Source of the DNA: a virus
IMG/VR virus record: IMGVR_UViG_3300031565_000014
Coordinates: 1-64,000 of that record
DNA: 64,000 nucleotides
Strand: one strand, 5' to 3'
Shown: piece after piece, positions 6,265-64,000 of the stretch
How the letters are laid out: the number at the start of each line of letters is the position of its first letter
Position numbering within the stretch: position 1 is the stretch's first letter
Notes under the pieces: generated by a model
What the model saw: only the letters and a program-made list of their open reading frames with translations
The model's database searches: none
Told to the model about the DNA's origin: nothing
Translations under genes and position numbers: made by a program

Positions 6265-6689
6265 GTAAATTAGATTGGATTATTTTTGGGGTAGTACTTT
6301 TAGTATTACCCCTTTTGTATGTTGTACTAGTTGCTTTTTATAAATATTTAAAAAAAAAATATAAGTATATTATAAAATTTAAAAAAGTAAGTAAACATAT
6401 ATCTGCAAAAGCTATTACGTCAGACGGTAGTATAATAGTTTTTGAAACAAAGCACGTACAAACTTATATTTATGAAAGAGACAAGCACAATGATTTGCTA
6501 GGACTTTTAAATGATGTTAACGAACACATACTAGATATGGGTGAATTTGAAACAGATGGATTAATGTATGTTAGAATTTCTGATTTAACTAAAAGTCAGT
6601 ATATTAATAGTATAACAAAATCTAGTAATGAATCAGGTTGCTCTTGTGAACAATGCAACTATTTAAAAAATAAATATAATGCAAAATAA
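6261..6689 (+). CDS. Membrane-anchored hypothetical protein (start ATG 6261)
   Basis: MSKLDWIIFGVVLLVLPLLYVVLVAF TM followed by a Lys cluster; C-terminal CSCEQC. Confidence 0.65.
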   Translation: MSKLDWIIFGVVLLVLPLLYVVLVAFYKYLKKKYKYIIKFKKVSKHISAKAITSDGSIIVFETKHVQTYIYERDKHNDLLGLLNDVNEHILDMGEFETDGLMYVRISDLTKSQYINSITKSSNESGCSCEQCNYLKNKYNAK

Positions 6690-6975
6690 CAGTATAGACA
6701 TTGATGAAGAAGTAGATATTGCTGTAGAGGAATTAATTAACTCTTCTTTAGGGCGAGCTATTGTAGTTTATAATGATGATGTTAACAGTTTTGAACATGT
6801 TATATATTGTTTAGTTAAGTACTGCTCTCATACGAGTATACAAGCTGAACAATGCGCTAATATTATCCATTTTAAAGGGAAATGTGATGTTAAAAGGGGT
6901 AATTTAAATAAATTAAAACCTATTCATGAAGCTTTATTAGAAAAAGGTTTAAGGTCAAAAATAGAAGAATTATGA
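6679..6975 (+). CDS. clpS: ClpS N-degron adaptor protein
   Basis: IVVYNDDVNSFEHVI...AEQCANIIHFKGKCDV...L...GL matches the ClpS family. Confidence 0.88.
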   Translation: MQNNSIDIDEEVDIAVEELINSSLGRAIVVYNDDVNSFEHVIYCLVKYCSHTSIQAEQCANIIHFKGKCDVKRGNLNKLKPIHEALLEKGLRSKIEEL

Positions 6976-38500: not shown

Positions 38501-41500
38501 TATCTGCCTCTTCAGGAGAATTTTTATATTCTTCAAACATAGGTGTACCCATAACTTCATTTATAGGCATAGAATGTCTTAAATATTCTCTTTCTATTAC
38601 AAAATTCTCATATTCTTGCTCGCTATTCTTACCTTCATGAGTAAAAGTAAATAAAGGTACAGGAGCTAACCCAAGTTTAAAATATTCAGATGCATTTGTA
38701 AAGTCTTTTCTTTTATATTGTTCTCTAATTTTATCCTTAGAAATATATAAAACTTTGTCAAGCACAGCAGCACCATATTTTAAATTAGATATTTCTTTTT
38801 TAGTTAAACTTGTTTTAGTAGCTAAACTTTTATAAAAATCTTTAGATCTAGATTCTAATAAACTATTTTGTAATAAATATTTAATTAAATTATTTCTGTA
38901 AGCTTCTACATATTTTGCTTGATTACCTTTACCAAAAGTTTCTCTAAGCGTTGTTTGAAACCCAGGATCAGACGTAATAGACTTTATTTTATCATTTAAA
39001 GTTTTGTCATTTCTAAGAATTAACACTTGAGACCATAAATCTGATTGAAAGTCAGATATATTAAAAGTACCAATAGGCGAACCTTCTAATAAACTATCTA
39101 CAAATTCTTCAGCGTAGATTTTTCCTGTTCTTAAAGAAGGTATGTTTGCTTCTTTTTGGTGTATATCATATAATGTTCTAGATACAGTTGTATCATAGTT
39201 CATATGTAACTTAAGTTGTGTTAAATCTTCTGCTATATTTTGTAATTCAATAAAATGTAGAAAAGCCCCAAATGCGTCTTTTTTATCTTTTTCAGATAAA
39301 CTTTCAACATTTATAGATACTAATGAAGAAGTTTTAATAGCATTTTCACCTATTAGCTCTTTACGTCTATCTTGTATTTGTTTTAAAAACTCAGTGTCAT
39401 ATGCTGGATTTTTAAGTTTTTCTGTTTTAAAGTTATCACTATCGTATTTTTTAAGTATATCATTTAATGCTTTAATTTTAGGATTACCTTGAGTAAAATT
39501 AGATCCTTCATGCGCTTCAACAAATAAAGATTCATAATAGTTTTGAGACTCTACGTATTCTTTTACATAAGGGTTAGAAACAAAATCAGCCGCTTTATCA
39601 AAAGGTACACCAGCCATAACTAACATAACTAATGTAGGTTCTACTTTCTTATTACCTTGTACATTAAAAATCCAAGCATCCTTTTCTATATCTACCCAAC
39701 CATTAATTAATAAGTTAAGTATATAAAAAATATCTTCTCCTTCTGTATCTTTTAATCTAGATAAATCTATTCCTCCGTTTTTAGCAACGTTATGTGGTAA
39801 CAATAAATTGAGAGCAATATCACTTTGCGTTTTAATAATTTCACCATCTTTATCTTTAGTATCTAACATCATATAAGGATTAAGGTGGAACCCTATTCTA
39901 TTAAACTCAGATTTAAAAGTTAAATCAATAGCTGCTTGACCTAAAGTGGCCATTCCTTCATTATTTTTACGATGCTTATCTAAATTATAACTGGAGAGCA
40001 ATATCTGAAATGCATGTATTCCTTTTTTAGCGTGATCTTGGTCTATTAAACTTTGAGAGGAGTTATAGCTCATAAATTTACCTAATTCATTAGCCTTATT
40101 TTTAACAGTATCACCATCAATAGAGGTAATTAAATTTGCAAAATTATCAGGTTTAAGTAGTATATCAGTTAAAACATCTACTAAACTTGTTTGGATAGCT
40201 GCTGCTGAAGAATTAGCTAGATTAAGTTTAACTTTATTAATTTCTTCTTTAGTATTTGCTATATCTTCTTTTATTTTTTGAGTCTTTTCAGTAGCGTCAA
40301 GTTCAAATAATTCATTTCTATCACTAAGTAGATTAGTAATATGGTCATTAAGTTTTTCTATATTATTTTCTACATAGGCTATTTCGTCATTAACATTTTC
40401 TGTAACACTTCTAAGTTTTAATAACTCAAGCTCTTCTTTAGCTAATTTAACTTTACTGTTAAGATCACTTATTGATTCTTTAAACTCATTATATATTTCA
40501 GATTTAGCTGCAATTACTTCAGGAGTAACTTCATTGTATAATGTTTCGTATAATTCTTTTTGCTTTTCTATTAACTCACTTAAATTATTTTTAAGAGATT
40601 GTGTACTATCTTTTATACTTTTATCATATTTATATTTATGTGTTTTACCGTCTAAGTTCATTAAACTTGGCATCATTATAAACATTTTGTCAACGTCAAA
40701 ATCTGAACCTGTTTTAGCTACTATTTCTGATGGTGCTATAATAATATTACCTGCATGTGTTGGTAAGAACTCAGCTATCTCCATTACATCCATAGAATTA
40801 AGACCTTGAGTTGGTATCCTTACGCCCACCATAGTAAGGATCTCTTTATTTTCAGAGATCCATTCTTTGTCTTCAATTAAAAGATTTAAAGCTTTAAGTG
40901 TAGATATATTTTCATCTTTTGCTTTCTTAAGAACATCAGCTCTAAGTAGTAAGTGCTTAAATTTACCTTGCATTGAAATTTTTACCTGCATAGCTTTAGT
41001 TCCCGTTTTGGGATCATAGCTATAAAATTTAAGACCGTTAGTACCGTATTCTTCTTTTTCTGCCTTAGTAGCATTTCTAGGCATGTCATTGTCAGTTAAA
41101 ATACTAGATGACGCTTGAATAAGAGGTTCTCCTGCTACTTTAGGCTTAACTATACGCTTATTAGCTAAAGATACTAAAGCTGTTTCTATTTTCTCAGCAG
41201 AAGGTGAAAAAGATAAATCTACTTTTAAATTTCCATTTTTATCTACCTGTATAAATTCTAGCTCATTGTCTCCTAAGTCTCTTTCAGATAATTCAGTCTG
41301 TATAGCATTAGTAAGATTTTCTAAACCCTTTTTAGAAAATGTTTTAACACCATCTTCATTTGTAGTATACTCTAAACCTAATTCTTCTATTAAATCTTCT
41401 TTATTTTTAGCAACTAATGCATCAAGTAAACTTTGATATTTTTCTGCAAGAACTTTATTTTCTTCAGAGGTACTATCACCCCCGTCAAACATACCAATAG

Positions 41501-44500
41501 TGACTAACTTACGCATTTGAGTAGGTAAAGTAGTTTTACCTTTGTATTTTTCATTTACGTCTGTTTGATCTTTTAGATATGCTAAAAATATTTCATTAAC
41601 TGTAAAGGGTAAAGTCTCTTTTAATTCTCTTGAATTATCAAAATCTTTATATATTACATCAGGTTTTCCGTTGGAAGTAACTGAGTTTATTTTAGAAGCA
41701 GATTCAAATATAGTATAATCTATACCTTGCTCCATCATTTGATCATGAAGTTTGTCAGCATTTTCACCAAACACTCCAGGAATTAATGGCAGTAAACTAT
41801 ATTTATGAAATGCTTGCAATGATATAGATCTATTTGAAGCTGGGTCTAAGTTATTAGCTAATGGCCCATAATATTGATACTTTCTTGGAGGAAAATATTT
41901 AACTACATCGTCAGTGTTTATATCTTCTTTATTAACTATTTTTTGAAATAACGTTTCTTGTTTATTCCAGTCCCACTTACCGCTAATAATAGATAATGTT
42001 CTATATGTATCTAATGACATATACCCCTGAGCATCTCCCTCAGTCATTTTCAAATAAGCTTCTAATCTTCTTTCTGTATCAACTTTGCTATAACCAAAAT
42101 CTTCAGTTAAAGTTTTAAACATGGCGTCATAAGCTGTAGATCTTACGTTGTTATCAGCTATTACAGATGTTCTAAGCTTACCGTCCCAAGAAGTAGATTT
42201 AGTAAATCCTTTAGATTCTGCTAAAGGTCTACCTACACTAGTATTTACAAACTCATTCGTACTTACATCATTGGAAAATTGTACACCTCCTGAAGCTATA
42301 GCTCCAATACGTTTATGAAAATCTTCTTTAGCCATATTAAACTGAGCAGGATCACCATATAATAACCCGAGCATGTCTAAATTTCTTAAAACATAATTAT
42401 AAGAAAATGCTTTAACTGCTAAATTTTTAGCTACATGACCTTTAGCCCCAGTTCTTAGCTCTATTTTTTGTCGTAAATTATCAGAAATATAAGGCATTTT
42501 ATTAAAATCATTCATGTCAAGATCTACAGCCTTAGACATAAATAATGATAAATCATTATAAATCATATCTCTAATAGCAGCTAATTCGCTATTATCTAAA
42601 ACACCACTATTCATAGATTGCTCTAATGTTACAATCTCTGTTGATGGATCACTAATATTATAATAATTTTTTATAGTTTCTTTTGTCTCATCGCTAAGTA
42701 TTTTATCAAATAAAACAAAGTCTTTACCATTCTCATAAAAATTACTTGAATTACTAATATTACTGTAAGGACTATCTTTTTTATTAAACTCAATCATTCT
42801 AGCTATTTCAGCATCTATAAAAGGAATAACCATTGCTGTAAATTGCTCATTAGCTATACTTAAGTTAGCTTCTTTAAAGTTTTCTAAGTCTATATATAAA
42901 TATTTATCTTGATTACTATCATTAACATTTCTTATTACAACAGCTGTAGCAGTAGATTTAGTACCATAACGCATTTGTTCAGATGCCCCTTTTAATAGAA
43001 GGTAATTCATGTTTTCTATTAATTTGTCACCTTGTGTTAATTTATTAGTTTTTTCACCGTTCTCATGGACAGACTCAGCAGTATTTGAAACGCCTAATAA
43101 TTCTTTACTTTCTATGCTACTATCTTTTCTTCTTTTACCGCTAGTATCAAACATAGCTCGTTTAGTCATACTAGCTGAAGCCCAAGCATAGTCTGGTCCT
43201 AAATGATGTAATTCTTCAATAGTATCTACAGTTTGATGCTTACCATTAAGTTGGTCAACATGTTCTACACTATTTAGTAAATTAATCATTACTGTCTGTG
43301 TAGAGAAAGTTTTATTAGTATAAACAGGATTATTACTAGCATCAGGCACCATAGCCACACTTACTGTAGGTGAGTTTTTTGCTATGATTTTTGCTATACT
43401 TTTTAAATGCTTATTATCATCACTAAATATTTCACTTAATGACCTATACATTTTAGGTTCATAGTCAGTACCTTCTTTTTCAGCCTTTTCTTTTTTCTTT
43501 AAATTATTTTCATGAGACTTAACTAAAGACCGTAATAAAAAATTTAAATTTAGTTTTGAATCCCCTTTTCCTTGAGTAGCTTCTCTTAACTCTTTAGCTA
43601 GTTCACTATTATAACCTATATCTGATAAGTCAAAACCTATATCTGTAAGAAATCCTACTATTCTAGTGCCCTCTATAAAATCTACTTTATGTTCACCGTG
43701 TTGTGGACTGAACTTTCTATATTTATCATAAATAGCTTCAAGATCTAAAATATTCCCATATCTAGGATCTTTAATAATCATGTGTTTACTAGGATCTGCT
43801 GTTTTAAATGCGTTATCAAGATTATTTACAGTTTTATCTACAATAGCATCATTATGTTTATGTATTAAATCATGTGTAACTATTCCATCATCATTTTTGT
43901 GTTTTCTATTTAAAGTGACTGAAACAGGTGTTGAATTTAAACCAAAAGACTTATGGAATTCAAACCATGTAGCAGCTGTACTAATATTAATATCTTTAGT
44001 ATTTCCTAATCTAGCTAGCAATATATTAACTATATTACTATATGGTTTAGTAGATTTAGCATAAGAATCTAAAACTTCATACATGGCATCAATACCTCTT
44101 GTATCTGTAAGTAAGTTAGTTAATAAAGTACTTACTTGAAAACTATCTGCAAGCATAGGTACACCAAATCTATCTAATCTAAAGTTTCCTTCTGAGTCTA
44201 CAAAAGGTAGTGTAGACATTAAATAGTCTATTATGTCTGTTCTATAATTACTTGGGTCTACATTAGACTTACTAAGTAACTCTACTCCAAGGTCTTTATC
44301 GGCAACTTCTTCATCAATATTTTCAGCTAATTTTTCTTTTTTAGATTCTTTTGATGATATATTATTACCAAATATAGAATTAGCAAGATGATGATCAGCT
44401 ATTAATTTAAAATTATTTAATACTTGTTCAAAAATTTCTTGTGTTCTACCTGTAGCATCTTCCGGGTAGTTTTTGTTATTATATTTATCTAATAAACTAT

Positions 44501-47500
44501 TATAAGCATTAGCATAAGCGTTATTTCTTATTGCACTACTTTTGAAAAACTGAGTAGTAAACTTATTAGTGTCGTTCATCTTATTTTTTAAGTCAAGATA
44601 TTCAGACATCATAGAGTCAAACATTGACATTACTTGTTTAGTTTCATCTTTACTAAGATTAATATTAGCACTTGATGGTGCTATTATTTTACCTTTGTTG
44701 AGTTTACCAAACATCATGTTACTAACACTAGCATTATATTCGTTTAAATTACCAACTCTAAGTTTATCATAAAGTTCTTTAACAGAATTTTGTGTGTTAA
44801 TGGTGCTATAGTCTATTGCTTTAGTCCCTTTAAAAAAGTTTTTTAAGAAGTTTAAAATTCTTTTAAATATATTATTAGTTGCAGTTCTACCTTTAAAGAC
44901 TTTAGTACCATCTGATAACATGTAAGATCTAAAATCTTCAGCTAAGAATTCTTCTATTTCTAAATAACTAGCATCTTTAAATTTAACTTGTTGTCCATTA
45001 TGATTAGTAAAACTACCGGATAACTTACTTACTTCATTGTATAATTTAGTTTTATCTCCAACAGTTAAAAATAATTGAGAAAAAGCATGCCATGATTCAT
45101 GATATAAATCTGTAAAATTACTTCCATTAAATAATGTTATTCCAGCAGAGCTAAATGTAGCGTATGCGTCAGAATTAACTATATTAAATGCTTGTTTGTA
45201 ACCTAGTAGTTTATTAATATCTGAAGATTCATACCATTTTTGAGCCTTCTCTATTTGTTCTTTAGTTACACCTGAGTCTAATTTTTTAGATCTCATTAAT
45301 TCATCAGGGTCTACTTCCGTCTCTGTAAAAGGGTTAGGTGTAAATTTAGTTTTAGCTTTAACTTCATTAGTTTGTTGTGTTGGTTTAGATAACTCTCCCC
45401 CTTTATATGGAGCAACTCTATTCTTCTTTTTTAATTCCGTTGCTATAAGTTCTAATAATTGTTTTTTCGCAACACTCATGGAAGCTCCCATACCTCTAAG
45501 CATATCTTCAACACCTTTTTCTCCAGCTTCTTTTAATCTTTTTCTTTCAGCATTAAGTATATCTAATTTCTTTTTATAATCAGCATATTCAGCAGTTTTA
45601 CTTAAATCTACTGATATTGGATAGAAAGTTTTACCGTCTACATCATCTATAGACAATTCTATTACTCCATTATTATCTTTTCTAATAGTATTTTGGTGTG
45701 TATTAAAGACTATGCTTTTTCCTCCTTTTGATATATCAGCTTGTTTATAACTTTTACCATAGCCTGACATGTCTATTGGAGAATATATTATTTCAACCTC
45801 ATTAGTTTGTTGTGCTGTCGAAGTCGTTAGAATAGGGCCTGCAGTAGTACCATAAGGAGTTGTCTGGGTCATAGTACCCGCAGTCTCATTTATTTCTTTA
45901 GTTTCTTCTTGAATAGCTTGATCTGAAGGAGTAAATTTAAAATATGGGTGTTTTCTAAAAATAACCTTTTTACCCTTATAATTAAGTGTTTCATTAGTAG
46001 TATAAGCGTTTTGAATTATGAAGTCATCATAACTCATTGTTTCCATAGTTATCTCGTTATTTTCTACTTTAATAGGAGCACTAATATTTTTCCCTATAAA
46101 ACTACTTAATATATTAATTCTATTTTTTTGATTTTTAGTTACCCCGTCTACTACTTCCCCATCACCTAAAGGAGAATTAAAAAAACTATCTTTCAAGTAT
46201 TCAGGTGTAACATTAATTTCAGCAACATTTTTGCCTTTAACATTAGTGACTAGTCTAATGTTTGTAGGAAGAACTTCTTTTGAATTATAGTCGTATTTAA
46301 AATATAATTGATCACCAACTAATGTAGTTAATATCTCATGTCTTTCTTTTGCATTAAGTACTTTGTTTTTACCTAATTTTCTTGGATTAGAAAGAGCTGG
46401 GTTAAAAAGTAATTCTGAAATTATATTTTGTTGAGCTTGTGTAAGTTTATTTTGTCTTACGGTAATATTATCTTGCTTATTAGGATTAGTTAACGTAATC
46501 TGGTAAACACCACGTTTAACTTCTGTAAGAGCATATCCTTGATATGTTTCAGAAAAATCAACATCCTTAAGTTGTGTTTTACTTTTTTCTCCTAAGTTTA
46601 CTATAGGAAATCCTTCACTTAAATATTCTATGTCTAGTAAAATAGCTTTACCGGACTCTAAAAGCTTATTTTGGAGCTCTACAAGCTTGTTATATTCATC
46701 TTGTATATATTTAGATGCTTCTTTACTATTTATCTTCTTAGAATGCGCTATTTCTTTTGGCGTTTGTATAGTAGATGCTCTTTGTCTAACACCATCAACT
46801 ATTACGTCAAATTCTTTACCTTCTTTTATTTCTTTTTTTAATGAAGTATGTGTCCAGTTACCGTCGGTATCTTTAACAGGTTTTCTTGTTTTAAAATAAA
46901 TAGCCTTGTAGCCTTCTTTTTTTTCTTTTGAAATATTGTAGTTTTCATCAAAATATAAAGTATTACCTTCATTATCTGTAACTACTACATTTGCTGCTTT
47001 ATTAAATTCTTCAGGATTCTTTTCTTTAAAGTCTTTATCTTGCTCATAAAGATCATTACTTTTTTCAAGTTCTTCTGATGTTACCATCTTTAATCTGAAA
47101 CCTGTATGACCATTATAAGTTAATGTTGTAAAATCAGGATTACCTGGGAATTCAGAACTAAGCTTTCTTAATAAACCATAAGCGTAAAATCCTTCACTAT
47201 TTACATTGCCATATGAAGCTTCCCAAAAGTAAGTAACATTAGGTGTTTCAGGTCTATCAGAAGCTTTAGTAACTTCTTTAGGTGGTTCAACTGCTTCAAC
47301 TCTTTTATTAGTTGGTACAGCTGCATCTATCTTACTTCTATTAACAGCAATTTGTACTGGAGTTAATGTAGACTCTAAGTACTCTACTATTTTAGTAGGA
47401 TCTTGAAATAAAGTAGCTGTTTCACTAATCTCATTAAAGTTATCTTTAAAATAAGATAGAAACTCACTATCATCAACCATTGCTTGAAGAGCATACATAG

Positions 47501-47681
47501 GCATAATATGTACAGCTTCTAAGGCAAGTTCATGACCTACTTCTTCTGCTAAACTATTATACTGATTTTGTAATAAACTCTTTAAGTTTAAGAGTTGATT
47601 ATTATCAACTAAAGTTTGTAATTCTTTATACACACTAGCGTATACGTATTCTAAAGCTTCATCTCCTAATGCACAAATCAT
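35556..47681 (-). CDS. Virion RNA polymerase (crAss-type) fused to accessory zincin domains
   Basis: Catalytic GSDFDVDK (40689-40703) preceded by GVRIPTQG; HExxH motifs at ~45090, ~37610 and ~37050. Confidence 0.88.
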   Translation of the reverse strand: MICALGDEALEYVYASVYKELQTLVDNNQLLNLKSLLQNQYNSLAEEVGHELALEAVHIMPMYALQAMVDDSEFLSYFKDNFNEISETATLFQDPTKIVEYLESTLTPVQIAVNRSKIDAAVPTNKRVEAVEPPKEVTKASDRPETPNVTYFWEASYGNVNSEGFYAYGLLRKLSSEFPGNPDFTTLTYNGHTGFRLKMVTSEELEKSNDLYEQDKDFKEKNPEEFNKAANVVVTDNEGNTLYFDENYNISKEKKEGYKAIYFKTRKPVKDTDGNWTHTSLKKEIKEGKEFDVIVDGVRQRASTIQTPKEIAHSKKINSKEASKYIQDEYNKLVELQNKLLESGKAILLDIEYLSEGFPIVNLGEKSKTQLKDVDFSETYQGYALTEVKRGVYQITLTNPNKQDNITVRQNKLTQAQQNIISELLFNPALSNPRKLGKNKVLNAKERHEILTTLVGDQLYFKYDYNSKEVLPTNIRLVTNVKGKNVAEINVTPEYLKDSFFNSPLGDGEVVDGVTKNQKNRINILSSFIGKNISAPIKVENNEITMETMSYDDFIIQNAYTTNETLNYKGKKVIFRKHPYFKFTPSDQAIQEETKEINETAGTMTQTTPYGTTAGPILTTSTAQQTNEVEIIYSPIDMSGYGKSYKQADISKGGKSIVFNTHQNTIRKDNNGVIELSIDDVDGKTFYPISVDLSKTAEYADYKKKLDILNAERKRLKEAGEKGVEDMLRGMGASMSVAKKQLLELIATELKKKNRVAPYKGGELSKPTQQTNEVKAKTKFTPNPFTETEVDPDELMRSKKLDSGVTKEQIEKAQKWYESSDINKLLGYKQAFNIVNSDAYATFSSAGITLFNGSNFTDLYHESWHAFSQLFLTVGDKTKLYNEVSKLSGSFTNHNGQQVKFKDASYLEIEEFLAEDFRSYMLSDGTKVFKGRTATNNIFKRILNFLKNFFKGTKAIDYSTINTQNSVKELYDKLRVGNLNEYNASVSNMMFGKLNKGKIIAPSSANINLSKDETKQVMSMFDSMMSEYLDLKNKMNDTNKFTTQFFKSSAIRNNAYANAYNSLLDKYNNKNYPEDATGRTQEIFEQVLNNFKLIADHHLANSIFGNNISSKESKKEKLAENIDEEVADKDLGVELLSKSNVDPSNYRTDIIDYLMSTLPFVDSEGNFRLDRFGVPMLADSFQVSTLLTNLLTDTRGIDAMYEVLDSYAKSTKPYSNIVNILLARLGNTKDINISTAATWFEFHKSFGLNSTPVSVTLNRKHKNDDGIVTHDLIHKHNDAIVDKTVNNLDNAFKTADPSKHMIIKDPRYGNILDLEAIYDKYRKFSPQHGEHKVDFIEGTRIVGFLTDIGFDLSDIGYNSELAKELREATQGKGDSKLNLNFLLRSLVKSHENNLKKKEKAEKEGTDYEPKMYRSLSEIFSDDNKHLKSIAKIIAKNSPTVSVAMVPDASNNPVYTNKTFSTQTVMINLLNSVEHVDQLNGKHQTVDTIEELHHLGPDYAWASASMTKRAMFDTSGKRRKDSSIESKELLGVSNTAESVHENGEKTNKLTQGDKLIENMNYLLLKGASEQMRYGTKSTATAVVIRNVNDSNQDKYLYIDLENFKEANLSIANEQFTAMVIPFIDAEIARMIEFNKKDSPYSNISNSSNFYENGKDFVLFDKILSDETKETIKNYYNISDPSTEIVTLEQSMNSGVLDNSELAAIRDMIYNDLSLFMSKAVDLDMNDFNKMPYISDNLRQKIELRTGAKGHVAKNLAVKAFSYNYVLRNLDMLGLLYGDPAQFNMAKEDFHKRIGAIASGGVQFSNDVSTNEFVNTSVGRPLAESKGFTKSTSWDGKLRTSVIADNNVRSTAYDAMFKTLTEDFGYSKVDTERRLEAYLKMTEGDAQGYMSLDTYRTLSIISGKWDWNKQETLFQKIVNKEDINTDDVVKYFPPRKYQYYGPLANNLDPASNRSISLQAFHKYSLLPLIPGVFGENADKLHDQMMEQGIDYTIFESASKINSVTSNGKPDVIYKDFDNSRELKETLPFTVNEIFLAYLKDQTDVNEKYKGKTTLPTQMRKLVTIGMFDGGDSTSEENKVLAEKYQSLLDALVAKNKEDLIEELGLEYTTNEDGVKTFSKKGLENLTNAIQTELSERDLGDNELEFIQVDKNGNLKVDLSFSPSAEKIETALVSLANKRIVKPKVAGEPLIQASSSILTDNDMPRNATKAEKEEYGTNGLKFYSYDPKTGTKAMQVKISMQGKFKHLLLRADVLKKAKDENISTLKALNLLIEDKEWISENKEILTMVGVRIPTQGLNSMDVMEIAEFLPTHAGNIIIAPSEIVAKTGSDFDVDKMFIMMPSLMNLDGKTHKYKYDKSIKDSTQSLKNNLSELIEKQKELYETLYNEVTPEVIAAKSEIYNEFKESISDLNSKVKLAKEELELLKLRSVTENVNDEIAYVENNIEKLNDHITNLLSDRNELFELDATEKTQKIKEDIANTKEEINKVKLNLANSSAAAIQTSLVDVLTDILLKPDNFANLITSIDGDTVKNKANELGKFMSYNSSQSLIDQDHAKKGIHAFQILLSSYNLDKHRKNNEGMATLGQAAIDLTFKSEFNRIGFHLNPYMMLDTKDKDGEIIKTQSDIALNLLLPHNVAKNGGIDLSRLKDTEGEDIFYILNLLINGWVDIEKDAWIFNVQGNKKVEPTLVMLVMAGVPFDKAADFVSNPYVKEYVESQNYYESLFVEAHEGSNFTQGNPKIKALNDILKKYDSDNFKTEKLKNPAYDTEFLKQIQDRRKELIGENAIKTSSLVSINVESLSEKDKKDAFGAFLHFIELQNIAEDLTQLKLHMNYDTTVSRTLYDIHQKEANIPSLRTGKIYAEEFVDSLLEGSPIGTFNISDFQSDLWSQVLILRNDKTLNDKIKSITSDPGFQTTLRETFGKGNQAKYVEAYRNNLIKYLLQNSLLESRSKDFYKSLATKTSLTKKEISNLKYGAAVLDKVLYISKDKIREQYKRKDFTNASEYFKLGLAPVPLFTFTHEGKNSEQEYENFVIEREYLRHSMPINEVMGTPMFEEYKNSPEEADNNFLHLLPGDNIENKINLLTYERIIRDMALSNIFNINSLFSSKTNTVADQFLRITKMYPELAEEYAVFTQFKELPTLNSDVKNIGPITSKPKGELVERVSENIKELQNHKDIFVRDFFTKLPMYAFLQSGHNTKSMNSILRYMPQGDFVQMLSNQINDVKVTTKILNSYTAKFNKVNRVDNKIRYKIQDYTVPNEKDDHISQINVIEISAYKGVPVKYSNNIRSKQNTRIAAKYSEGVILLDKELLLEGFSKKAWTSPRNLFETIHGEKINSKADALAPDTFTTYEEWQNFVIEHEYQHTLYTRKDFDNEFPGSTLGHYESVINQRALEALSTAEVESIPTTLVEDNNNYTVVPLAVENAFQIVRPDFTEEVENSVPKAELFESTPELANEVYEAAGFKSNLPSVLDYKIGKIYNTQGKEIFAGVVDGQVYINKELLDKYSNKEVLDNQLPILNTVLKNLNVYDRLVNGSKEQLVRFLVEHEKAHLDFEREGRKFKNEEVEEVYANGKALITIGILKSKDFDISGSNEAVIRLSKYFPTKEEYIDDMVELVAKAMDNATVDLSTITGYEVDVFKGSLWGKKLQTSSMDNFFFLQGKDGYPKNKGELKEAISKDIARNIPRSIKEKYWKEILKSLPDDEKALLSNWAYYNNIKFYTSQYGKPYFDFNKEKYPELNKEDKEKYTNWDSFISGIIGSFTGAGSDLWFANNLLADEEGSIIDWYKNLTPEKLDENIKNLSRAMAFKSMVVSSFERGSSISALDQNARKVESIKEAYYEIKQRTEVSPPQLTSTSLSQEITPQQKQEAQEKFQEYVNATGRQDIEGFKDFVNKPKQQATEVDKVTDEQIIKNNQSTTFVTEEATSFNNTYPMHIKNMGESLGEENFDYNKTLIDNIVSDLKELTEKGNPVSFFENYGVSLKNSAPKTYKYLNEQLAENFRLSNDPSNETKEVMPNILPREISDEVIQKGIQNEIQDAMDSLNNCKK

Positions 47682-56850: not shown

Positions 56851-59253
56851 TTATTTAAAACCGTATGCACTTAGTGGTGGGTTTTGATTTGCTTTATATG
56901 TATTCTTAGGAGAAGTTAAAGCATCAGCTTCCTCCTCTGCTTTACTTTGTATTTTCTTTTCATCCCACTTAGGGTGTCTGTTAAACCAATCTTTATATGC
57001 ATTTTGATATGCTTCATCCCATGCTTTTTTAGCATCATTTTCACTATAAGCACCATCTCCTGTAATAGGACGACCATCACCTGATCTACCAAATTCTCTA
57101 GTTAATGGATCAAAGTCATATTGAGGATACATCTCATTTACTATTTGGTTTTTAAAGGCTCTATGTAAACCATCTATATAACTTTGTCTTAATTTCTCTC
57201 TAGCAGCAGCTTTAGAATTGTCATATTGTTGATTAGCTATTGTAGTCTTATCATACTGATCAGTAAGTCTAAGCGCATTAGCAGCATTATATTGATTAAT
57301 CATTTGTTTGTTAGCTTGCTCAAATTGATTAGCTACACCAACATTACGTTCATCATATTGTGCGGTGATATTCGCCGCATTTCTTGCAGAGTCTCCTTGT
57401 ATTTTAGATAATCTTGAACCTAAAGCTTGTGGTCCAGCAAACATAGCAGATGCATCAGAAGCAATGTTAGCTTGTTCAGCATTTGCTGCTAAGGCTCTTG
57501 TAGGATCATAAAAAGTAGGATCCATAACTTCTACATCTACACCTGGAGACCAAGGTAAATATTTATTTATTCTACCATAATCCCCTGCAGCTCCTGCTGT
57601 ATTAATGATGTCTTCCATCCACCATCTATTAGGATCTTCATTAGTAGCTTCATTGAAAGGTTTTTCCGGAATAGCTCCTGCTTTTTTCTCAGGTGCTAGT
57701 TCTTCAGGTGCCTGCTCTTGATACCCGCCATATAATCCTTGAAACATTGTTGTATCACCGGGTTGTAGGTCTAAAGGAGAAATAGGCTGCCCTTCTTTTC
57801 TTGCTTGGTGGTCTTTATTACCAGTTTGTGTTAACATTAATTGAGAACCATCGTTATTAGAACCATATTTAATAAGATCAGGATTTTCAACAGAAGCGTC
57901 ATTTAATGCTAAATATAAAGCTTGAACAACTCCTACATCTTCAGGAGATAAAGCAGCATCCCCAAAATCTTTATAATAATCTCTATTTTTACCAACAGCC
58001 CCTCTATCATACCCTTTATTCATTTCATTAGTTAGAGGATTTCTGCCTGCAATATCTGAGTTAGAAATCATCTGCTCTACTTGACCTTGGTATGTACTAA
58101 ACAAATTTAATACTTCGTCATCACTATATTTTAATATTTTTTGTTTTACTTCTTCTGTTACTCTAGGATCATCAGCATTATCTACTATATCTATAAATTT
58201 ATTTATAACAAAATTTTTAAATTCAGGATCAGTTTTAAATCTTTCTTTAATTATGTTAAGACCGTTTTTAATACTAGAAACACCTGCTTTAGGTTTATTT
58301 TCATTAGAATTAGACGGTAGATTTTCTTCTTTCAATTTTTCTTCTTTAAGCCATGTTTGGTGGCTTGTTGCTTTAATTGGGTTACCACTTGCATCATATA
58401 CTACACGATCAGCATATTTTTCATTTAAATTTTCATCTTTAGCTTTAATAATATTTCCTTGATCATCATATAATTCTTGGTAATAATATTTACCATTACT
58501 AAACACAGGGTTGCTAACTTCTCTACCATCTTTATATTTGTCTAATTCCCCACCATTAGCATACTTAGAGGCACCTCCACACTTATAACATGGAGCATTG
58601 CCACCATAACGCATCATTTGTTCTTGAGGAGCTTCTTGACTCATTTGTGGTAAAATATCTTCAGGGTTAACACCTATAGAAGCTAAGTATTCCATAGATA
58701 CATTAGGTATACCATCTGGGAAACCTTTTATAGATTCTTGGACAAGAGCTAGTTTACCTAAAGATTGAGTATTATTTTTAAGCATACTCATGGCCGTATC
58801 TTTAGTTATTTTGTCTGACTTAATATCATTGATTATATTTTTATATTCGTTGATATCAAATTTAGCGGCTATTTTAGCAGGTGTAACTCCTTTAGTGCCA
58901 CCCATGTTAAATTCTTTTAGAATAGCTTTATCTTTTATTTTCATATCTCTATTATCTGAAAATATAAAAGATCCTTCTGGAATATTTAAAGGTGTCCCAC
59001 CTTGACTATGACGTTTACCCCCTACTTTATATAGTTCAGGTAACATGTCTGATGTCATATTTGTGTAAACATATTCTCCTTTTTCAGCTTCTAAATTAGC
59101 TGCCTCTCTATCTACAGGTTTAAGTGTATTAGACACAGTAGTATCCGGAGTATTAACATACTCGTCATTATTATTATAACTAGGTTCTAATTTGTTATAA
59201 TGTGACCCGCCATCTTTAGATTTCGGTAATCCTGTTATTCTTACTTTTCTCAT
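56851..59253 (-). CDS. Virion cargo protein with xxGG linkers
   Basis: NLEAEKGE...GKRHSQGG...FIFSD N-terminal module, a RYGG/KCGG/ANGG cluster and a Q/A/N-rich coiled C-terminus. Confidence 0.65.
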   Translation of the reverse strand: MRKVRITGLPKSKDGGSHYNKLEPSYNNNDEYVNTPDTTVSNTLKPVDREAANLEAEKGEYVYTNMTSDMLPELYKVGGKRHSQGGTPLNIPEGSFIFSDNRDMKIKDKAILKEFNMGGTKGVTPAKIAAKFDINEYKNIINDIKSDKITKDTAMSMLKNNTQSLGKLALVQESIKGFPDGIPNVSMEYLASIGVNPEDILPQMSQEAPQEQMMRYGGNAPCYKCGGASKYANGGELDKYKDGREVSNPVFSNGKYYYQELYDDQGNIIKAKDENLNEKYADRVVYDASGNPIKATSHQTWLKEEKLKEENLPSNSNENKPKAGVSSIKNGLNIIKERFKTDPEFKNFVINKFIDIVDNADDPRVTEEVKQKILKYSDDEVLNLFSTYQGQVEQMISNSDIAGRNPLTNEMNKGYDRGAVGKNRDYYKDFGDAALSPEDVGVVQALYLALNDASVENPDLIKYGSNNDGSQLMLTQTGNKDHQARKEGQPISPLDLQPGDTTMFQGLYGGYQEQAPEELAPEKKAGAIPEKPFNEATNEDPNRWWMEDIINTAGAAGDYGRINKYLPWSPGVDVEVMDPTFYDPTRALAANAEQANIASDASAMFAGPQALGSRLSKIQGDSARNAANITAQYDERNVGVANQFEQANKQMINQYNAANALRLTDQYDKTTIANQQYDNSKAAAREKLRQSYIDGLHRAFKNQIVNEMYPQYDFDPLTREFGRSGDGRPITGDGAYSENDAKKAWDEAYQNAYKDWFNRHPKWDEKKIQSKAEEEADALTSPKNTYKANQNPPLSAYGFK

Positions 59254-59258
59254 AATGT

Positions 59259-62200
59259 TTAATCTAAATATTCTATTGTACCTCCGTTAGCTAAAATATA
59301 TTGAATATCTTCATCAGACATTTCATATTCGCCGCCTTCTTGATAATTAACGCTAGTTCCTCCAAATTTATTCATAGCTAAAGAAGGATCGTCCATCTGA
59401 TCTAACTTAGCACTATATTCTTTTTGTAATTTCTGATGAAGCTTAGCTTTCTTTTTATCTTCAATATCCATAGCCTCAATTTTATCTTGTTCAACAATTA
59501 GATTACGCATCCATCTTTCTTCATTGTTTACTAATCTATGAGGCTCCAAATTTGCAGCAACTTGACCTGTTCCTCTTTTTTGCATGTGAGGAGCATCCAT
59601 TTGTTGAAATCTTTGCTGAGCTTGATCAAATTCATTTTCTAAACGAGGAACATCACCGACATACCTCATTACTCTATTATCACTACCTTTAGCATATCGT
59701 GACGGATCCACCCACGGATTATTACTGTTACCAGAATACATATTAAACTCATCCACTCCACCAGGACTATAAGAAACAGAACCATCTTCACCAGCAATAA
59801 CCGCATGATAACTTCCACTACGTCCTGAAGTATTGTTATAATGGCCCCTAATAAGATCTCCTGACTCAGGTATTGTACCTGCAGGTAAAAGATCAAAACC
59901 TAAGTTTTTAGCTTGGCTATTAAAGCTACCATTACCTGTAACAATTGGCAAAGGGTCACCAGCACCCACTTTCACACTACCAAAAGTCATGTCTGGAGAA
60001 TCAGAAGGGACTGTTGCTCCTGCATTTTGCATTACTTGACAAGCGTATGTGTTGCAAGCGAAACCATTTTGGCCAACCCAATTTGCTGTTGCTGGAGGAA
60101 GAGATTGTCTTGGGTTATTCATTGCTGCAATCTTATAAGCTTCTTCTGGAATAGCATTTCTAACGTTCTGTACTCTCGTATTTTCTTGAGCATGTGCGTT
60201 TCTAGCAGCATCTATTTTATCTCCTTGAGCAAACCATTCCTCTATAGCACCACCATTTTGATATCTATTATAATTTCTATTTTGAGCATATGTTTTATCA
60301 TCAGGTCTAAATAAGCCTGTGTTCATTTCATAGTCTCCTCTGTCTCCAGACATTGATGGTTTAGTTGTAAACACACTATCAGCCATCCTGTCCTTACTTA
60401 ATTCTCTTTCTCTTTCAGCTCTAGCTCTACTTTCTAAAAAACCGTTTAGCATACTTAAGCCAGCTAAAGCACCAGATGCCCCAGCTTGACCTATCCACGC
60501 ATTATTCTTAGGTTTTTTAGCCCCCATTTGAGGAGGTAAACTAGATCCTAATGGCTTATCTACACCAGCATCTGTTAAAGTTCCAGGAGAGTTTTCTATT
60601 ACTCCAGCACTTTTAGGTGTCATTTTAGTTAAACCATCTGGGTTAATACTACTTCCTATGCTAGGCGTGTTAGCTATGTTAGGTGTATTAGCTATTGTAC
60701 CTGCAGGAATTTGTTGCATTTTTAAAGGGTCTTGTGACATACTATAGTCTACACCTAGAGGATCACCATAGTCTAAGGGTTCTGGAGCTAATGGATCATC
60801 CAACATTGGTACATTCATAGTCTGTCTATAATCCTCTTGGAGACCATTAGGATTATTAGCATTATTATTATTAAATCCATTATTATTATTTAATCCTTGA
60901 TAATTTTGCCAATCACCTTTACCATCATATAGATCATTAACATTATTTAACTGTGCATCATATTCTTCTCTAGTTATTTGACCAGATTCTAATTGTTGTT
61001 TTAATATACTCATATCAGAAGCATAGATATCTCTTGAGATACCTTGTCCTCCGACTCCTACATAAGCACCACCTGTTTGAAACATCTGAGGCTTTTTTAG
61101 CTCTTTTAGACCTGAATACATTTCTTCTAACTTACTATTGATAACGTTATTTCTAAGTAATTCAGCAAAGTTAGTCTTTTTATTTTTAGTATAATCTTTA
61201 TTCTCTTCTTGAGGAACATAATTAGGTTCTACTTTAAAATCTTTCTTACTTAGGTTAGCATATTGCATTAGCATACTAGGATCCATCTGGCTAAACTGTT
61301 CTGCAGGATAAGCATCATAAGAACCGCCTTCATCAAACATAGCAATAGGTCTAGCATTACCACGTTTAACTTGTTTGTAATGATCTTTAGATTGCATATA
61401 AACATCTCTAATATTTTTTATATTTTCCCTATCTTGTTGTCTAAAATCACGCGTTCCTTCTTCATAAGGGTTTTTTCTATATGTTGCGAAGGCACGAGCA
61501 TCCATTATTTTATCATAATCTCTTTTACCACTAAACTTGTCAGCATAGTCATAATATCCTGGTTGATTGACAAAAGGTGCGTTTAAATTAGAAGCAAGTA
61601 TATTTAAACCTTCTTGTTGATATACATTAGGATCTTCACCGTATACTCCAGGTACTTGTTCGCCGGCCTGTGCTTTATGTAAAGAACCTTCACCATCTTG
61701 CATCATAGACATTATCTCTTCATCAGATTTACCTTCTCTTCTAAGTTGCTCTATATATTCAGGAGAAGACAAGTCTATAGACTGCATTTGGTTAAACATA
61801 CGTCTATCCATGTTAGATGTGTCTATTTTAAAATCAGGAATAGATTTTTTAAAATCAGGCATAGGTACTTCAAAACTTCTTATTTTATAGCTGTCTTGTG
61901 TTTGACTCATTCCTTGATCTGCATTAAACCCTTCAGGATAATAATTATCATAGAAGTTTTGCATTTTAATTTCTTCAGGTGTAGCGCCCGGTTTATTATA
62001 AAACTCCATAGGTCCAGGACCTTCATATTTATTCTGTGAATTATAGTTAATATTTTCATAAGGGATATAAGGATTAGTGTTACCTCCACCATCTTGCATC
62101 TTCTTCTTAAAGAACTTATTAAAGTTTTTTAGGTTATCGTCATATTTACCAAATTTATTAGACTGCATTTGCTTTGTGTAATCAGCATACTTAGGATCTG

Positions 62201-63854
62201 ACATTTGAGAAACAGGTACACTTACTACTCTGTAGCCTTCACCATACTCACTATCTAAACCTCCTGAGTAATCATCGGAGTCAAAAGAAAATCTATCTTG
62301 ACCCACGCCATACTCACCTTTTATTACTGGTTTAGAATTAGTAAAATTATAAATATTTGCATTATTTTCACCAACTTGTTCTGGATTAACTACACCTACA
62401 GACGATCTATAGTTTAATACTTTAGGTTTATTACCTCTAGTATCTACTAAAAATTGATAATATTGTTCAGGTGTGACTTCTCTACCAGCGGCACCACCAT
62501 CTTGGTATTTTCCTTTATCATATTGAACCATCTCTTCTTCAGTCATAGGTCTTGTAGGTGATGTTGGCCCCATACCTCTGTAACCTCCATAGTTATTTAT
62601 CTTATATTCATTAGCTTCATCTAAAGCATCCAAGTTTTCATAATTAGCATAATTTTTCATGTAATCATAATAGTCATCATTCTCTAAAGGATTACTATAT
62701 ACTCTATCAGCAATAAGCTTTAAAGCTTCTTTTTCATTTTTAGGCTTTAAATGATCTTTCTTTAAAGAGTTTAACGCCTTCTGGGTCATGTTACCTTGTT
62801 CATTTTTTACCTCAGGATATTCAAGGTTAAGCTGGTAATTACGAAACTCATCAGTAAAAGGAATAGCTTCTCTTGCCGCATCTCTTTCTGTCATGTAATC
62901 TTCGAAAGCTTCAGTACCGTATTTTATATGAGGAGGTATATTATAAAGAAATGGCGAAGTGTTATCATAAAACATTGCACGTCTAGTTTCTACAGGGATA
63001 TCCAAGCTTGATTGGTAATAGTTATTAGCATCTTCTTCTTTTTCAAAATATTGAACTTCTTTTCTTTTTAAAGCTTCATCATAAGCATCTATAGGTTCTC
63101 TAATTTCTGACCAATTATCATCTTCATCTTGAAATAATGTAGGAAATACTACCCATCCTTTTCCTGGAATATATTCTTTCATCATACCATGAGCAATTGG
63201 TTCTTGAGGTCTCCCTACCCATCCTTCTCTAGAAGGTAATTTTGGTTTGCCTCCTCCATTTTGGTATTTAATTAAACCTCCATATTTTTTCTCTTGCTTC
63301 CAATCACCATCATCAGCAAAACTTATAGCAGCTTTAACGTCTTCTCCAAAATAATTTACTTCTCCTCTTTTTTTAGCTTCAGCATAAGCTTCACCAACGT
63401 CTTGAATTTCTTTCCAGTCGTCCTTACCATTTTGAAATAATGTAGGGAAAGCTACCCAACCTTCACCGGGAATGTATTCTCGTGCCATTAAATGTGTAGA
63501 AGGTCTATTATCATTTTCAGGATCTAATACTATGTCACCTTCTCTATAAGGTACAAATGTAGTTGATCTTTGCTTTACACCACCATCTTGGTACATAGGA
63601 AATTCATCTACATAATCAGCACCAGGAAAGTTATATTCTCCTCCAGGCATCATGATTATAGATCGCCCATTATTATCAACACCCATTACAGGGTAGTTAA
63701 CTCCTTGCATGGTAATATCTCCTCCAGGAATCCTTGTGTTCTGACCAGGATGAGCCCATTGACCTCTTGGATCATAAATCATATCCTTACTATAAGGGTT
63801 AGACTGCTTAGTCTGACTTGACTTAACTTTTATTTTTCCTTTATTTAAACTCAT
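59259..63854 (-). CDS. Modular virion cargo protein with repeated QxGG linkers and NlpC/P60-like module
   Basis: About 10 [YMF]QxGG-like motifs, a duplicated GWVxFPTLFQ module and CNTYAC...GDLI...HAVI. Confidence 0.7.
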   Translation of the reverse strand: MSLNKGKIKVKSSQTKQSNPYSKDMIYDPRGQWAHPGQNTRIPGGDITMQGVNYPVMGVDNNGRSIIMMPGGEYNFPGADYVDEFPMYQDGGVKQRSTTFVPYREGDIVLDPENDNRPSTHLMAREYIPGEGWVAFPTLFQNGKDDWKEIQDVGEAYAEAKKRGEVNYFGEDVKAAISFADDGDWKQEKKYGGLIKYQNGGGKPKLPSREGWVGRPQEPIAHGMMKEYIPGKGWVVFPTLFQDEDDNWSEIREPIDAYDEALKRKEVQYFEKEEDANNYYQSSLDIPVETRRAMFYDNTSPFLYNIPPHIKYGTEAFEDYMTERDAAREAIPFTDEFRNYQLNLEYPEVKNEQGNMTQKALNSLKKDHLKPKNEKEALKLIADRVYSNPLENDDYYDYMKNYANYENLDALDEANEYKINNYGGYRGMGPTSPTRPMTEEEMVQYDKGKYQDGGAAGREVTPEQYYQFLVDTRGNKPKVLNYRSSVGVVNPEQVGENNANIYNFTNSKPVIKGEYGVGQDRFSFDSDDYSGGLDSEYGEGYRVVSVPVSQMSDPKYADYTKQMQSNKFGKYDDNLKNFNKFFKKKMQDGGGNTNPYIPYENINYNSQNKYEGPGPMEFYNKPGATPEEIKMQNFYDNYYPEGFNADQGMSQTQDSYKIRSFEVPMPDFKKSIPDFKIDTSNMDRRMFNQMQSIDLSSPEYIEQLRREGKSDEEIMSMMQDGEGSLHKAQAGEQVPGVYGEDPNVYQQEGLNILASNLNAPFVNQPGYYDYADKFSGKRDYDKIMDARAFATYRKNPYEEGTRDFRQQDRENIKNIRDVYMQSKDHYKQVKRGNARPIAMFDEGGSYDAYPAEQFSQMDPSMLMQYANLSKKDFKVEPNYVPQEENKDYTKNKKTNFAELLRNNVINSKLEEMYSGLKELKKPQMFQTGGAYVGVGGQGISRDIYASDMSILKQQLESGQITREEYDAQLNNVNDLYDGKGDWQNYQGLNNNNGFNNNNANNPNGLQEDYRQTMNVPMLDDPLAPEPLDYGDPLGVDYSMSQDPLKMQQIPAGTIANTPNIANTPSIGSSINPDGLTKMTPKSAGVIENSPGTLTDAGVDKPLGSSLPPQMGAKKPKNNAWIGQAGASGALAGLSMLNGFLESRARAERERELSKDRMADSVFTTKPSMSGDRGDYEMNTGLFRPDDKTYAQNRNYNRYQNGGAIEEWFAQGDKIDAARNAHAQENTRVQNVRNAIPEEAYKIAAMNNPRQSLPPATANWVGQNGFACNTYACQVMQNAGATVPSDSPDMTFGSVKVGAGDPLPIVTGNGSFNSQAKNLGFDLLPAGTIPESGDLIRGHYNNTSGRSGSYHAVIAGEDGSVSYSPGGVDEFNMYSGNSNNPWVDPSRYAKGSDNRVMRYVGDVPRLENEFDQAQQRFQQMDAPHMQKRGTGQVAANLEPHRLVNNEERWMRNLIVEQDKIEAMDIEDKKKAKLHQKLQKEYSAKLDQMDDPSLAMNKFGGTSVNYQEGGEYEMSDEDIQYILANGGTIEYLD

Positions 63855-63857
63855 AGC

Positions 63858-64000
63858 TTATCTTGGACTTATAACTTGCTTCTCTTTATTCAATTTAAAC
63901 AAAAATTTTGAATCTCCTGATACTCTTTTCTTTAAAATTAAAGACGAGAGATAATGTCTAAACTTTTTTCTTTGTAATTCTGGTTTATTATAGTCAATAT
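63858..64000 (-). CDS. 3' end of a truncated gene, probably the crAss-like tail/muzzle (stabilization) protein
   Basis: Open frame IDYNKPELQRKKFRHY...QVISPR*; the identity is inferred from position upstream of the cargo genes. Confidence 0.5.
   Translation of the reverse strand, partial: IDYNKPELQRKKFRHYLSSLILKKRVSGDSKFLFKLNKEKQVISPR

Follow-up and report, generated by a model that had tools for sequence, protein, structure and literature searches.

A repeated Gly-Gly motif in ORF A

The DNA analyzed here (the window) comprises positions 1 to 64,000 of IMG/VR virus record IMGVR_UViG_3300031565_000014, and the gene under study is an open reading frame (ORF), designated ORF A, which occupies 59259..63854 on the minus strand, begins with ATG and encodes 1531 amino acids. 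The predicted protein carries a short recurring motif, [YMF]QxGG, termed here the seam. Seven exact copies were detected (Table 1), versus 0.08 +/- 0.29 expected from 500 shuffles of the same protein (maximum, 2). With the looser pattern [FYWM]..GG, ten copies were observed versus 1.69 expected, a number reached in none of 1000 shuffles. In addition, about four degenerate copies are present, namely MQDGE, FDEGG, KKYGG (residues 189-193) and NKFGG (residues 1495-1499).

An earlier reading of the window, made from its letters alone (the sequence-only reading), had described about ten such linkers, dividing the protein into units of about 100-300 residues. The counts bear this out, and all of the positions agree to within about 20 nt; the stretches between seams range from 85 to 306 residues (92, 109, 253, 136, 132, 122, 85, 273 and 306), followed by a tail of 23 residues. 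KAQAGE, which had also been listed as a copy, does not match the pattern. Among the other ORFs of at least 80 amino acids on the parent contig (72.8 kb), the exact motif is lacking. The product of the next gene, ORF B (800 amino acids), contains three relaxed copies, and the pattern [FYWM]x0-2GG occurs in it eight times versus 1.4 expected.

The motif also recurs at the level of the DNA, as five copies of an 18-nt string with 78-89% identity, and the degenerate 15-mer ACCACCNTCTTGRWA has three matches versus 0.05 expected. The codons of the seam copies are nevertheless mixed (GGT in 10 cases, GGA in 3 and GGC in 3 for Gly; both TAC and TAT for Tyr), and it is therefore the peptide that is conserved and not the DNA. 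The recurrence noted in the sequence-only reading is thus real but trivial, being the seam peptide written in the preferred codons of ORF A. Since only about 15-18 nt recur, in ordinary codons, the proposal that the motif DNA drives recombination was not upheld.

Table 1. Features of ORF A and of the adjacent genes. Residue numbers refer to the ORF A protein.
Feature	Position	Strand	Remarks
CrAss_Ring_2	69837-70523	-	E 1.6e-19; upstream of ORF A, beyond the window
CrAss_Ring_1	68878-69837	-	E 2.5e-14; upstream of ORF A
1675-aa virion structural gene	63858-68885	-	3' end inside the window (63858..64000)
Basic leader, MSLNKGKIKVK...	63783..63854	-	Residues 1-24; in relatives M.NK[KR]VL.K...KAKAP
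N-terminal domain (NTD)	63579..63782	-	Residues 25-92; ends in PMYQDGG
Seam 1, YQDGG	63579..63593	-	Residues 88-92
R1 module	63270..63554	-	Residues about 101-195; ends in double seam KKYGG-LI-KYQNGG
Seam 2, YQNGG	63252..63266	-	Residues 197-201; KKYGG just upstream
R2 module	63015..63227	-	Residues about 210-280; no seam at its end
Seam 3, YQDGG	62493..62507	-	Residues 450-454
Seam 4, MQDGG	62085..62099	-	Residues 586-590
Degenerate seam MQDGE	61689..61703	-	Residues 718-722
Degenerate seam FDEGG	61323..61337	-	Residues 840-844
Seam 5, FQTGG	61068..61082	-	Residues 925-929
Gly/Ala-rich stretch and conserved region	60246..60620	-	Residues 1079-1203
Seam 6, YQNGG	60249..60263	-	Residues 1198-1202
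Cys/His module	59595..60245	-	Residues 1204-1420, helical extension to about 1500; between two seams
Seam 7, YQEGG	59331..59345	-	Residues 1504-1508; preceded by NKFGG
Acidic C-terminal tail EYEMSDEDIQYILANGGTIEYLD	59262..59330	-	Residues 1509-1531
ORF B, 800 aa	56851..59253	-	Next gene after ORF A; conserved in most related loci

Modular organization of ORF A

The most conserved module of the protein is the NTD, which shows 48-74% identity across 45 IMG/VR loci. In an AlphaFold2 (AF2) model of residues 1-300, computed from 23 sequences, the NTD is all-beta, with a predicted local distance difference test score (pLDDT) of 83-97, and the model is confident to residue 90. Values under 50 were obtained for two stretches, G91 to residue 120 and residues 190-230. 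R1 was modelled at a pLDDT of 71-88, and the double seam following it comes out as disordered. R1 and R2 represent a tandem duplication (63037-63177 and 63340-63480; 141 nt, 74% identity, with a spacing of 303 nt or 101 residues).

Comparison of this model with the PDB by Foldseek yielded nothing at E<=0.001. The best hits in the VIA wide search (Z 5.6) were small cupin-like beta sandwiches, at a level below the noise of the tool. In BFVD, at E<=0.001, uncharacterised phage proteins and a LysM protein of Virus NIOZ-UU157 were retrieved, together with a weak match to a structural protein of Cellulophaga phage phi4:1. Searches of PDB sequences with ORF A and ORF B (phmmer) returned nothing at E<=1, and PHROGs contains no family for either protein.

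For residues 281-929, which comprise five units, no relatives were found. Residues 931-1110 are rich in Asn, Gly, Asp and Pro, and are followed by a Gly/Ala-rich, mildly hydrophobic stretch at about residues 1118-1142. The larger region formed by residues 1079-1238 has a counterpart in four relatives (E 6e-12 to 3e-6), namely the C-terminal part of their second cargo gene. In this gene of relatives, the tail comes directly after the stretch homologous to residues 1079-1203.

The Cys/His module belongs to an unnamed family, with 63 representatives among the 1.84 billion searched; Pfam gave no match for 44 of these 63 members, nor for ORF A. Three residues are almost invariant in the family: C1267 (56 of 57 sequences), H1350 (55 of 57) and D1333 (54 of 57). 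A profile built from 25 members did not match any PDB sequence at E<=10. Look-alikes detected with a protein language model include CHAP and NlpC/P60 clusters (0.89-0.91), which provide a lead only, and the cell-wall domains Amidase_2, YkuD, SLT, CHAP, LysM and PG_binding_1 occur in the same kind of protein in relatives. The module is probably a cell-wall amidase or peptidase. The acidic tail at the C-terminus of ORF A fits the consensus of its relatives, MTEEEIxxFLANGGE[LV]EY[LI].

Distribution of the motif among metagenomic relatives

A word-indexed search identified 34 relatives of ORF A of 842-2680 residues, plus 11 shorter ones, most of which share only the NTD. The exact motif was present in at least one copy in 24 of the 34, and a relaxed copy in 32. 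The largest number of relaxed copies among the 34 was 10; a further protein, found via the Cys/His module (P0095), contains 12.

A scan of IMG/VR with the NTD resulted in 45 loci, of which 42 held ORFs of at least 150 amino acids and provided the distinct gene orders; the order was listed for 18. In the latter, the succession of ring protein 2, ring protein 1, a large structural gene and motif-rich genes recurs. With one exception, the ring and large-gene positions carry no motifs, and the next two to four genes carry one to six each. Over all loci, 49 exact motifs were counted in the 38,748 residues of 40 NTD-bearing proteins, and 75 in the 219,848 residues of the other ORFs of at least 150 amino acids, the latter mostly in neighbouring cargo genes. 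Tyr, Met, Phe, Trp or Leu occupies the -3 position of the Gly-Gly pair in 715 of 1483 pairs in the family (48% versus a background of 19%), and the widened consensus reads P-x-[MYF]-[QK]-[DEK]-G-G-[WYE]-[ILV].

Certain seams read P-C-[YF]-x-C-G-G (L040 14078-14542, L044 14603-17449 and L045 14966-16375; residues 221-227 of ORF B), and some cargo N-termini are rich in Cys (MNKCKGGCQMKAGGKTCAKCGC); at some sites, the turn at the Gly-Gly may represent an element resembling a zinc knuckle. In three loci the ORF B-type protein is split into an N-part and a C-part ORF (L023 15353-18510, L024 16350-19493 and L034 16747-19925), and in L024 an additional ORF of 204 amino acids is located between the cargo genes.

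Coincidence of the motif with module borders

The borders of homology were examined in 35 proteins of the family, using the ends of high-scoring segment pairs (HSPs) from their alignment. Of 736 distinct HSP ends, 25.1% fell within -2 to +6 of the last Gly of a seam, compared with 2.6% (maximum 4.3%) for random positions, and the mode lay exactly on the last Gly. Clustering of HSP starts at the seams was much weaker. Within 23 Pfam envelopes in 20 relatives, only one of 98 motifs was found, versus 6.4 expected (P=0.01).

The Cys/His module provides an example of relocation. In P0002, the closest relative of ORF A (42% identity), the module precedes the hydrophobic region and is flanked by KFQTGG and KFVEGG; in ORF A it is located between RYQNGG and the NYQEGG that precedes the tail, downstream of the hydrophobic region. 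Of the standalone Cys/His proteins shorter than 400 residues, 23 of 29 lack the motif, and at least one motif is present in 23 of the 28 Cys/His-bearing proteins of at least 600 residues. In L009, the region homologous to residues 1124-1208 of ORF A stops 25 residues before the C-terminus, where the tail begins, and at this same point a module of 300 residues is inserted in ORF A. Besides the cell-wall domains named above, the relatives carry SET, ART-PolyVal, DUF5872 and DUF5754 domains.

The clustering of HSP ends, the avoidance of Pfam domains and the relocation of the Cys/His module together establish that ORF A is modular and expandable, with its boundaries at the motif. Modules have been gained and shuffled among the relatives, and their borders coincide with the motif, as the sequence-only reading had anticipated when it described the protein as an expandable array.

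Genomic context

The window belongs to a crAss-like phage and has a GC content of about 29%. The parent contig is incomplete, and the same ORF A protein was also found on a contig of 119 kb. Upstream of ORF A on the minus strand are the two ring genes and a large structural gene, and downstream of ORF B are minus-strand ORFs of 1152, 1873, 4041 and 2036 amino acids. The 4041-residue product (35556-47681, minus strand) matches gp50 of Bacteroides phage PhicrAss001 (residues 1837-2340, E 6e-22). According to passages of the PhicrAss001 atlas paper (Bayfield et al. 2023, PMC10172136), the gene order in that phage is ring proteins, muzzle (gp44), cargo C1 (gp45), cargo C2 (gp46) and RNA-polymerase-like giants. 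The order around ORF A runs parallel to this, which places ORF A in the cargo position: it follows the ring and large structural genes and lies upstream of the gp50-matching giant, as does the first cargo gene. No match was found by BLAST between the 1675-residue protein and the C-terminal part of PhicrAss001 gp44 or phi14:2 gp082, and the term muzzle is thus only a positional label for this gene.

The ring genes and the gene position fit the virion-cargo idea of the sequence-only reading, and the ORF A protein is probably carried in the particle and injected. The position of the gene and the analogy with PhicrAss001 suggest that it enters the recipient cell along with the DNA.

The 4041-residue protein also shows a weak match to PhicrAss001 gp47 (E 4e-4), and it may unite RNA-polymerase-like cargo subunits that PhicrAss001 encodes in separate genes. 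The 2036-residue protein (29446-35556, minus strand) contains an ART-PolyVal ADP-ribosyltransferase domain (residues 71-157, E 1.2e-11) and a single relaxed seam, and represents a polyvalent-type protein that closes the cargo block.

The plus-strand half of the window encodes replication proteins, including a DnaB-like helicase, a primase, a family-B-like polymerase and a PD-(D/E)XK nuclease. In the same block, a DUF2201_N putative metallopeptidase and VWA-like protein (17904-19205, plus strand) adjoins a MoxR-like ATPase (19676-20953, plus strand); the ATPase aside, these form the only protease-like gene pair of the contig. Other plus-strand genes encode a ClpS adaptor homologue (6679-6975; PF02617, E 1.5e-13) and an AAA ATPase of the Cdc48 subfamily (2271-3083; PF00004, E 2.6e-14), which may constitute a phage-borne N-degron or unfoldase pair, as well as a small glucosaminidase (705-1115; PF01832, E 6e-11), which is probably the lysis enzyme and is distinct from the cell-wall module of ORF A.

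Acidic tails, basic leaders and a possible docking code

In addition to the seam, two terminal elements recur in these proteins. The acidic tail element, ..E-E-I-x-x-Y-[KQ]-x-G-G-Y-I-V-E-E-L, itself includes the motif, and its conservation extends right to the final residue; 31 copies were observed at C-termini and 20 internally. The second element is a basic leader, exemplified in ORF B by MRKVRITGLPKSKDGG (59206-59253, minus strand), with the pattern M.KVRI.K..LPKAQ. Among 239 distinct junctions of adjacent genes in the related loci (L003-L046), a protein with an acidic tail was followed by a gene starting with M.K[VI]RI.K in 27 of 28 cases, versus 10 of 211 for the remaining junctions (Fisher P 3e-26), and the junction of ORF A with ORF B conforms to this rule. 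The association of tail with leader is a new observation.

Internal copies of the tail precede either a further seam or PKAQ (which makes up the latter half of the leader), so that gene junctions and internal seams share the same layout. Copies of WL[DN]KY numbered 4 at N-termini and 23 at C-termini, with a further 37 inside proteins, 26 of them flanked by Gly-Gly. In some cases the double seam GG-W-L-[DN]-K-Y-Q-x-GG is split by gene ends, with certain proteins ending in ...GGWL[DN]KY and others starting with M..WL[DN]KY.QGG.

These patterns raise the possibility, which we put forward tentatively, that seam, tail and leader form a virion cargo code read by some component of the particle, be it the portal, the tail lumen, the capsid, the next cargo protein or an unrecognised maturation protease. 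If so, any bracketed module would be packed and injected in gene order as part of one train, and the code would represent a natural plug-and-play cassette for protein delivery in an abundant order of phages.

A more specific version, in which the three elements act as short linear motifs bound in trans by the portal, the tail lumen, the capsid or the next cargo protein, would account for both the loading of proheads and the order of exit, with the tail of one protein docking on the leader of the next. This we consider rather unlikely, although the tail-to-leader junctions, the shared layout of internal tails and the presence of WL[DN]KY both internally and at termini would all be in keeping with it. 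Furthermore, according to passages of PMC10172136, gp45 contacts the portal and the tail barrel, and probably also the muzzle, through distinct short stretches. The tail-to-leader rule may, however, reflect only a conserved gene order among related phages.

Possible cleavage at the motif

In the sequence-only reading, the seams were regarded as signals for cleavage or packaging. On the former view, a maturation protease would cut after the Gly-Gly, either in the capsid or after injection, freeing separate effectors and stripping the short N-terminal leaders and the C-terminal tail. Conservation is indeed strongest before the Gly-Gly pair, and homology breaks exactly after the last Gly, yet the P2' position beyond it is conserved as well (Ile is enriched 3.6-fold, and Leu, Val and Thr 2-fold). 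The placement of many motifs near the termini is reminiscent of pro-peptides: they lie within the first 25 residues in, for example, P0066, P0070, P0073, P0085, P0123, L005, L018, L037 and L041, and elsewhere 6-30 residues from the C-terminus. A cut in the tail element would, however, free a stub of merely 6-8 residues, which is nonetheless conserved to its end.

Cutting at Gly-Gly has precedents: SUMO/Ulp proteases act on C-termini of the pattern Q-x-G-G, and both adenovirus and African swine fever virus cut their core polyproteins at Gly-Gly. A cognate protease was sought in five relatives, four with a CheckV completeness of 98-100% and one of 88%. In none of the five was Peptidase_C48 (PF02902), C39 (PF03412) or Peptidase_S78 detected; the positive controls were matched in each case (in 7 of 14 for C39). 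The C5 family (PF00770) was also found in none of the five, but its control matched nowhere, and this result is uninformative. General Pfam scans of the ORFs of the contig detected no cysteine protease family, although divergent proteases could escape such scans and the contig is incomplete. In ORF A itself, no peptidase family was detected by Pfam at E<=0.1, and its Cys/His module had no match in the five relatives, a weak result in that the search had no positive control.

The evidence from PhicrAss001, the only crassvirus characterised, points in the same direction by analogy. The Gly-Gly pairs of gp45 are located at residues 427-428, 434-435 and 447-448, all inside the segment 425-552, which is described in passages of PMC10172136 as continuous, resolved by cryo-electron microscopy and bound to the portal; their position within one resolved segment counts against cutting. 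Virion bands of 150, 270 and >300 kDa, reported in part of PMC6235969, would fit large cargo proteins that are not processed. The terms "proteoly", "cleav" and "protease" do not appear in PMC10172136, and among the listed papers that mention both Crassvirales and prohead protease, none deals with cargo processing to judge by title or abstract. The reading of the seam as a cleavage site is thus unsupported and somewhat disfavoured, and we regard processing of the ORF A protein as a polyprotein as improbable.

Two further candidates, a transglutaminase-type cross-link between Gln and Lys and a ClpS N-degron, were dropped for lack of support. A purely historical origin, in which a single ancestral linker spread by duplication and recombination and is now simply tolerated, is very improbable: the tandem duplication of R1 and R2 and the shuffling of modules among relatives would suit it, but the five-residue core is kept across unrelated flanking modules and across loci whose NTDs are 48-74% identical, with different codons in different copies.

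The seam as a proposed joint between exchangeable modules

The chances are about even, in our judgment, that the seam is an uncut hinge or joint, and possibly a docking handle, linking modules that fold independently within an ejected cargo protein that attacks the cell wall. The protein would resemble beads on a string, in which a basic leader, a beta-sandwich N-terminal module, the tandem pair R1 and R2, five modules without a family assignment, a Gly/Ala-rich, mildly hydrophobic stretch (possibly membrane-inserting), the Cys/His module and an acidic tail succeed one another. One autonomous short peptide, of consensus P-x-[MYF]-[QK]-x-G-G-x-[ILV] and ending the preceding module with a bulky residue and Gln, would join these modules. 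The Gly-Gly would provide a tight turn or hinge, and the hydrophobic residue after it would open the next piece. Such joints would allow each module to unfold and refold singly while the chain threads through the portal and the tail, and they may double as docking handles, both within a chain and between chains; to this extent the joint and docking interpretations overlap. Since the same joint brackets every module, in-frame gain, loss and swapping would yield working proteins, which would explain the varied relatives.

Several observations weigh against this interpretation. A plain hinge would not be expected to need a conserved aromatic residue or Met together with Gln; their conservation implies some partner that would read the motif. 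The boundary statistic is inflated by the tendency of HSPs to terminate on conserved islands of any kind, and many of the loci are near-duplicates or close relatives, which means that the counts do not represent independent events. For residues 1190-1531, the AF2 model, based on three sequences, had a mean pLDDT of 41.5, and the fold of the Cys/His module was not obtained. The clade is without a cultured member, and ORF A was not matched by tblastn at E<=1e-5 in 50,697 phage records. Finally, PF25725 and PF25712 (the families of crassvirus cargo proteins 1 and 2) did not match ORF A, ORF B or nine homologues of ORF B at E<=1, hhalign of the ORF B family with gp45 gave Probab=0.15, and the hidden Markov model (HMM) of the NTD does not match gp45. 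For comparison, the PF25725 HMM, which represents the portal-bound domain (gp45 residues 424-555), recognizes gp45 itself with E 2.3e-66. Homology of ORF B or the NTD to gp45, which had been suspected by eye, was not supported. With no detectable homology to the cargo proteins of PhicrAss001, the evidence from that phage rests on analogy.

How crassviruses load and eject megadaltons of protein is still poorly understood, and a joint peptide that brackets exchangeable modules offers a concrete experimental handle on packaging, ejection and cleavage. A peptide read in trans could account for the ongoing swapping of cell-wall and anti-host modules, and could be put to use in loading phage particles with foreign proteins. 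Even a simple hinge would serve as a useful marker for cargo genes in uncultured crAss-like genomes.

Comparison with known systems

Among systems in which Gly-Gly sites are cut, the polyproteins of adenovirus and African swine fever virus resemble ORF A in having a motif that ends in Gly-Gly at the borders of virion components. They differ in that their genomes encode a clan CE protease and cleavage has been shown, whereas the searches of the contig and of the five relatives found no such protease, that for C5 being uninformative. The C39 double-glycine systems require a C39 domain, which the protease searches detected neither in the five relatives nor on the contig. With respect to the NlpC/P60 and CHAP peptidases, residues 1204-1420 of ORF A have no match to a family HMM but possess conserved Cys and His residues.

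The ejection proteins of podoviruses, namely gp14, gp15 and gp16 of T7 and gp7, gp16 and gp20 of P22, offer another likeness, being packed in the capsid, leaving it unfolded ahead of the DNA and including parts that degrade the cell wall and insert into membranes. We know of no repeated joint motif or module shuffling in these proteins. In Cellulophaga phage phi14:2, for which mass spectrometry data on the virion are available, the proteins in the cargo position (gp079-gp081) lack [YMF]QxGG, and only gp081 shows a weak enrichment of a bulky residue followed by x0-2-GG (5 versus 1.5); the proteomics of this phage therefore cannot decide the matter of cutting.

Crassvirus cargo proteins and polyvalent proteins are both known already; a conserved joint peptide was not met with in the literature searched. 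The polyvalent proteins (Iyer et al. 2017), as presented in passages of PMC5512222, are long single polypeptides in which effector and cell-wall domains of unrelated kinds follow one another, and they reach the recipient along with the DNA. ORF A shares their multi-domain character, with its NTD, two R modules and Cys/His module, as do the relatives with their enzymatic domains. The passages searched propose processing by zincin-like metallopeptidase domains, which are common but not obligatory in polyvalent proteins and were not detected in ORF A by Pfam; they mention no conserved joint peptide, and the words "linker" and "glycine" are absent from them.

A close parallel is gp45 of PhicrAss001 (cargo C1; PF25725, crAss_CARG1), which occupies the same gene position, after the ring and large tail-tip genes. 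As described in passages of PMC10172136, gp45 is carried in the virion, is thought to be ejected from N- to C-terminus and has separate segments at the portal and in the tail. It shares with ORF A a Gly-rich hydrophobic stretch and an excess of aromatic-x0-2-GG (10 versus 3.7 expected, a number reached in 7 of 1000 shuffles), and its FGGWLNTQGG (residues 426-435) resembles the double seam of the ORF A family, GGWL[DN]KYQxGG. However, gp45 (842 residues) has neither an enzymatic module nor [YMF]QxGG, whereas ORF A has roughly double the length, its modules are exchangeable and its conserved N-terminal module is of a different kind.

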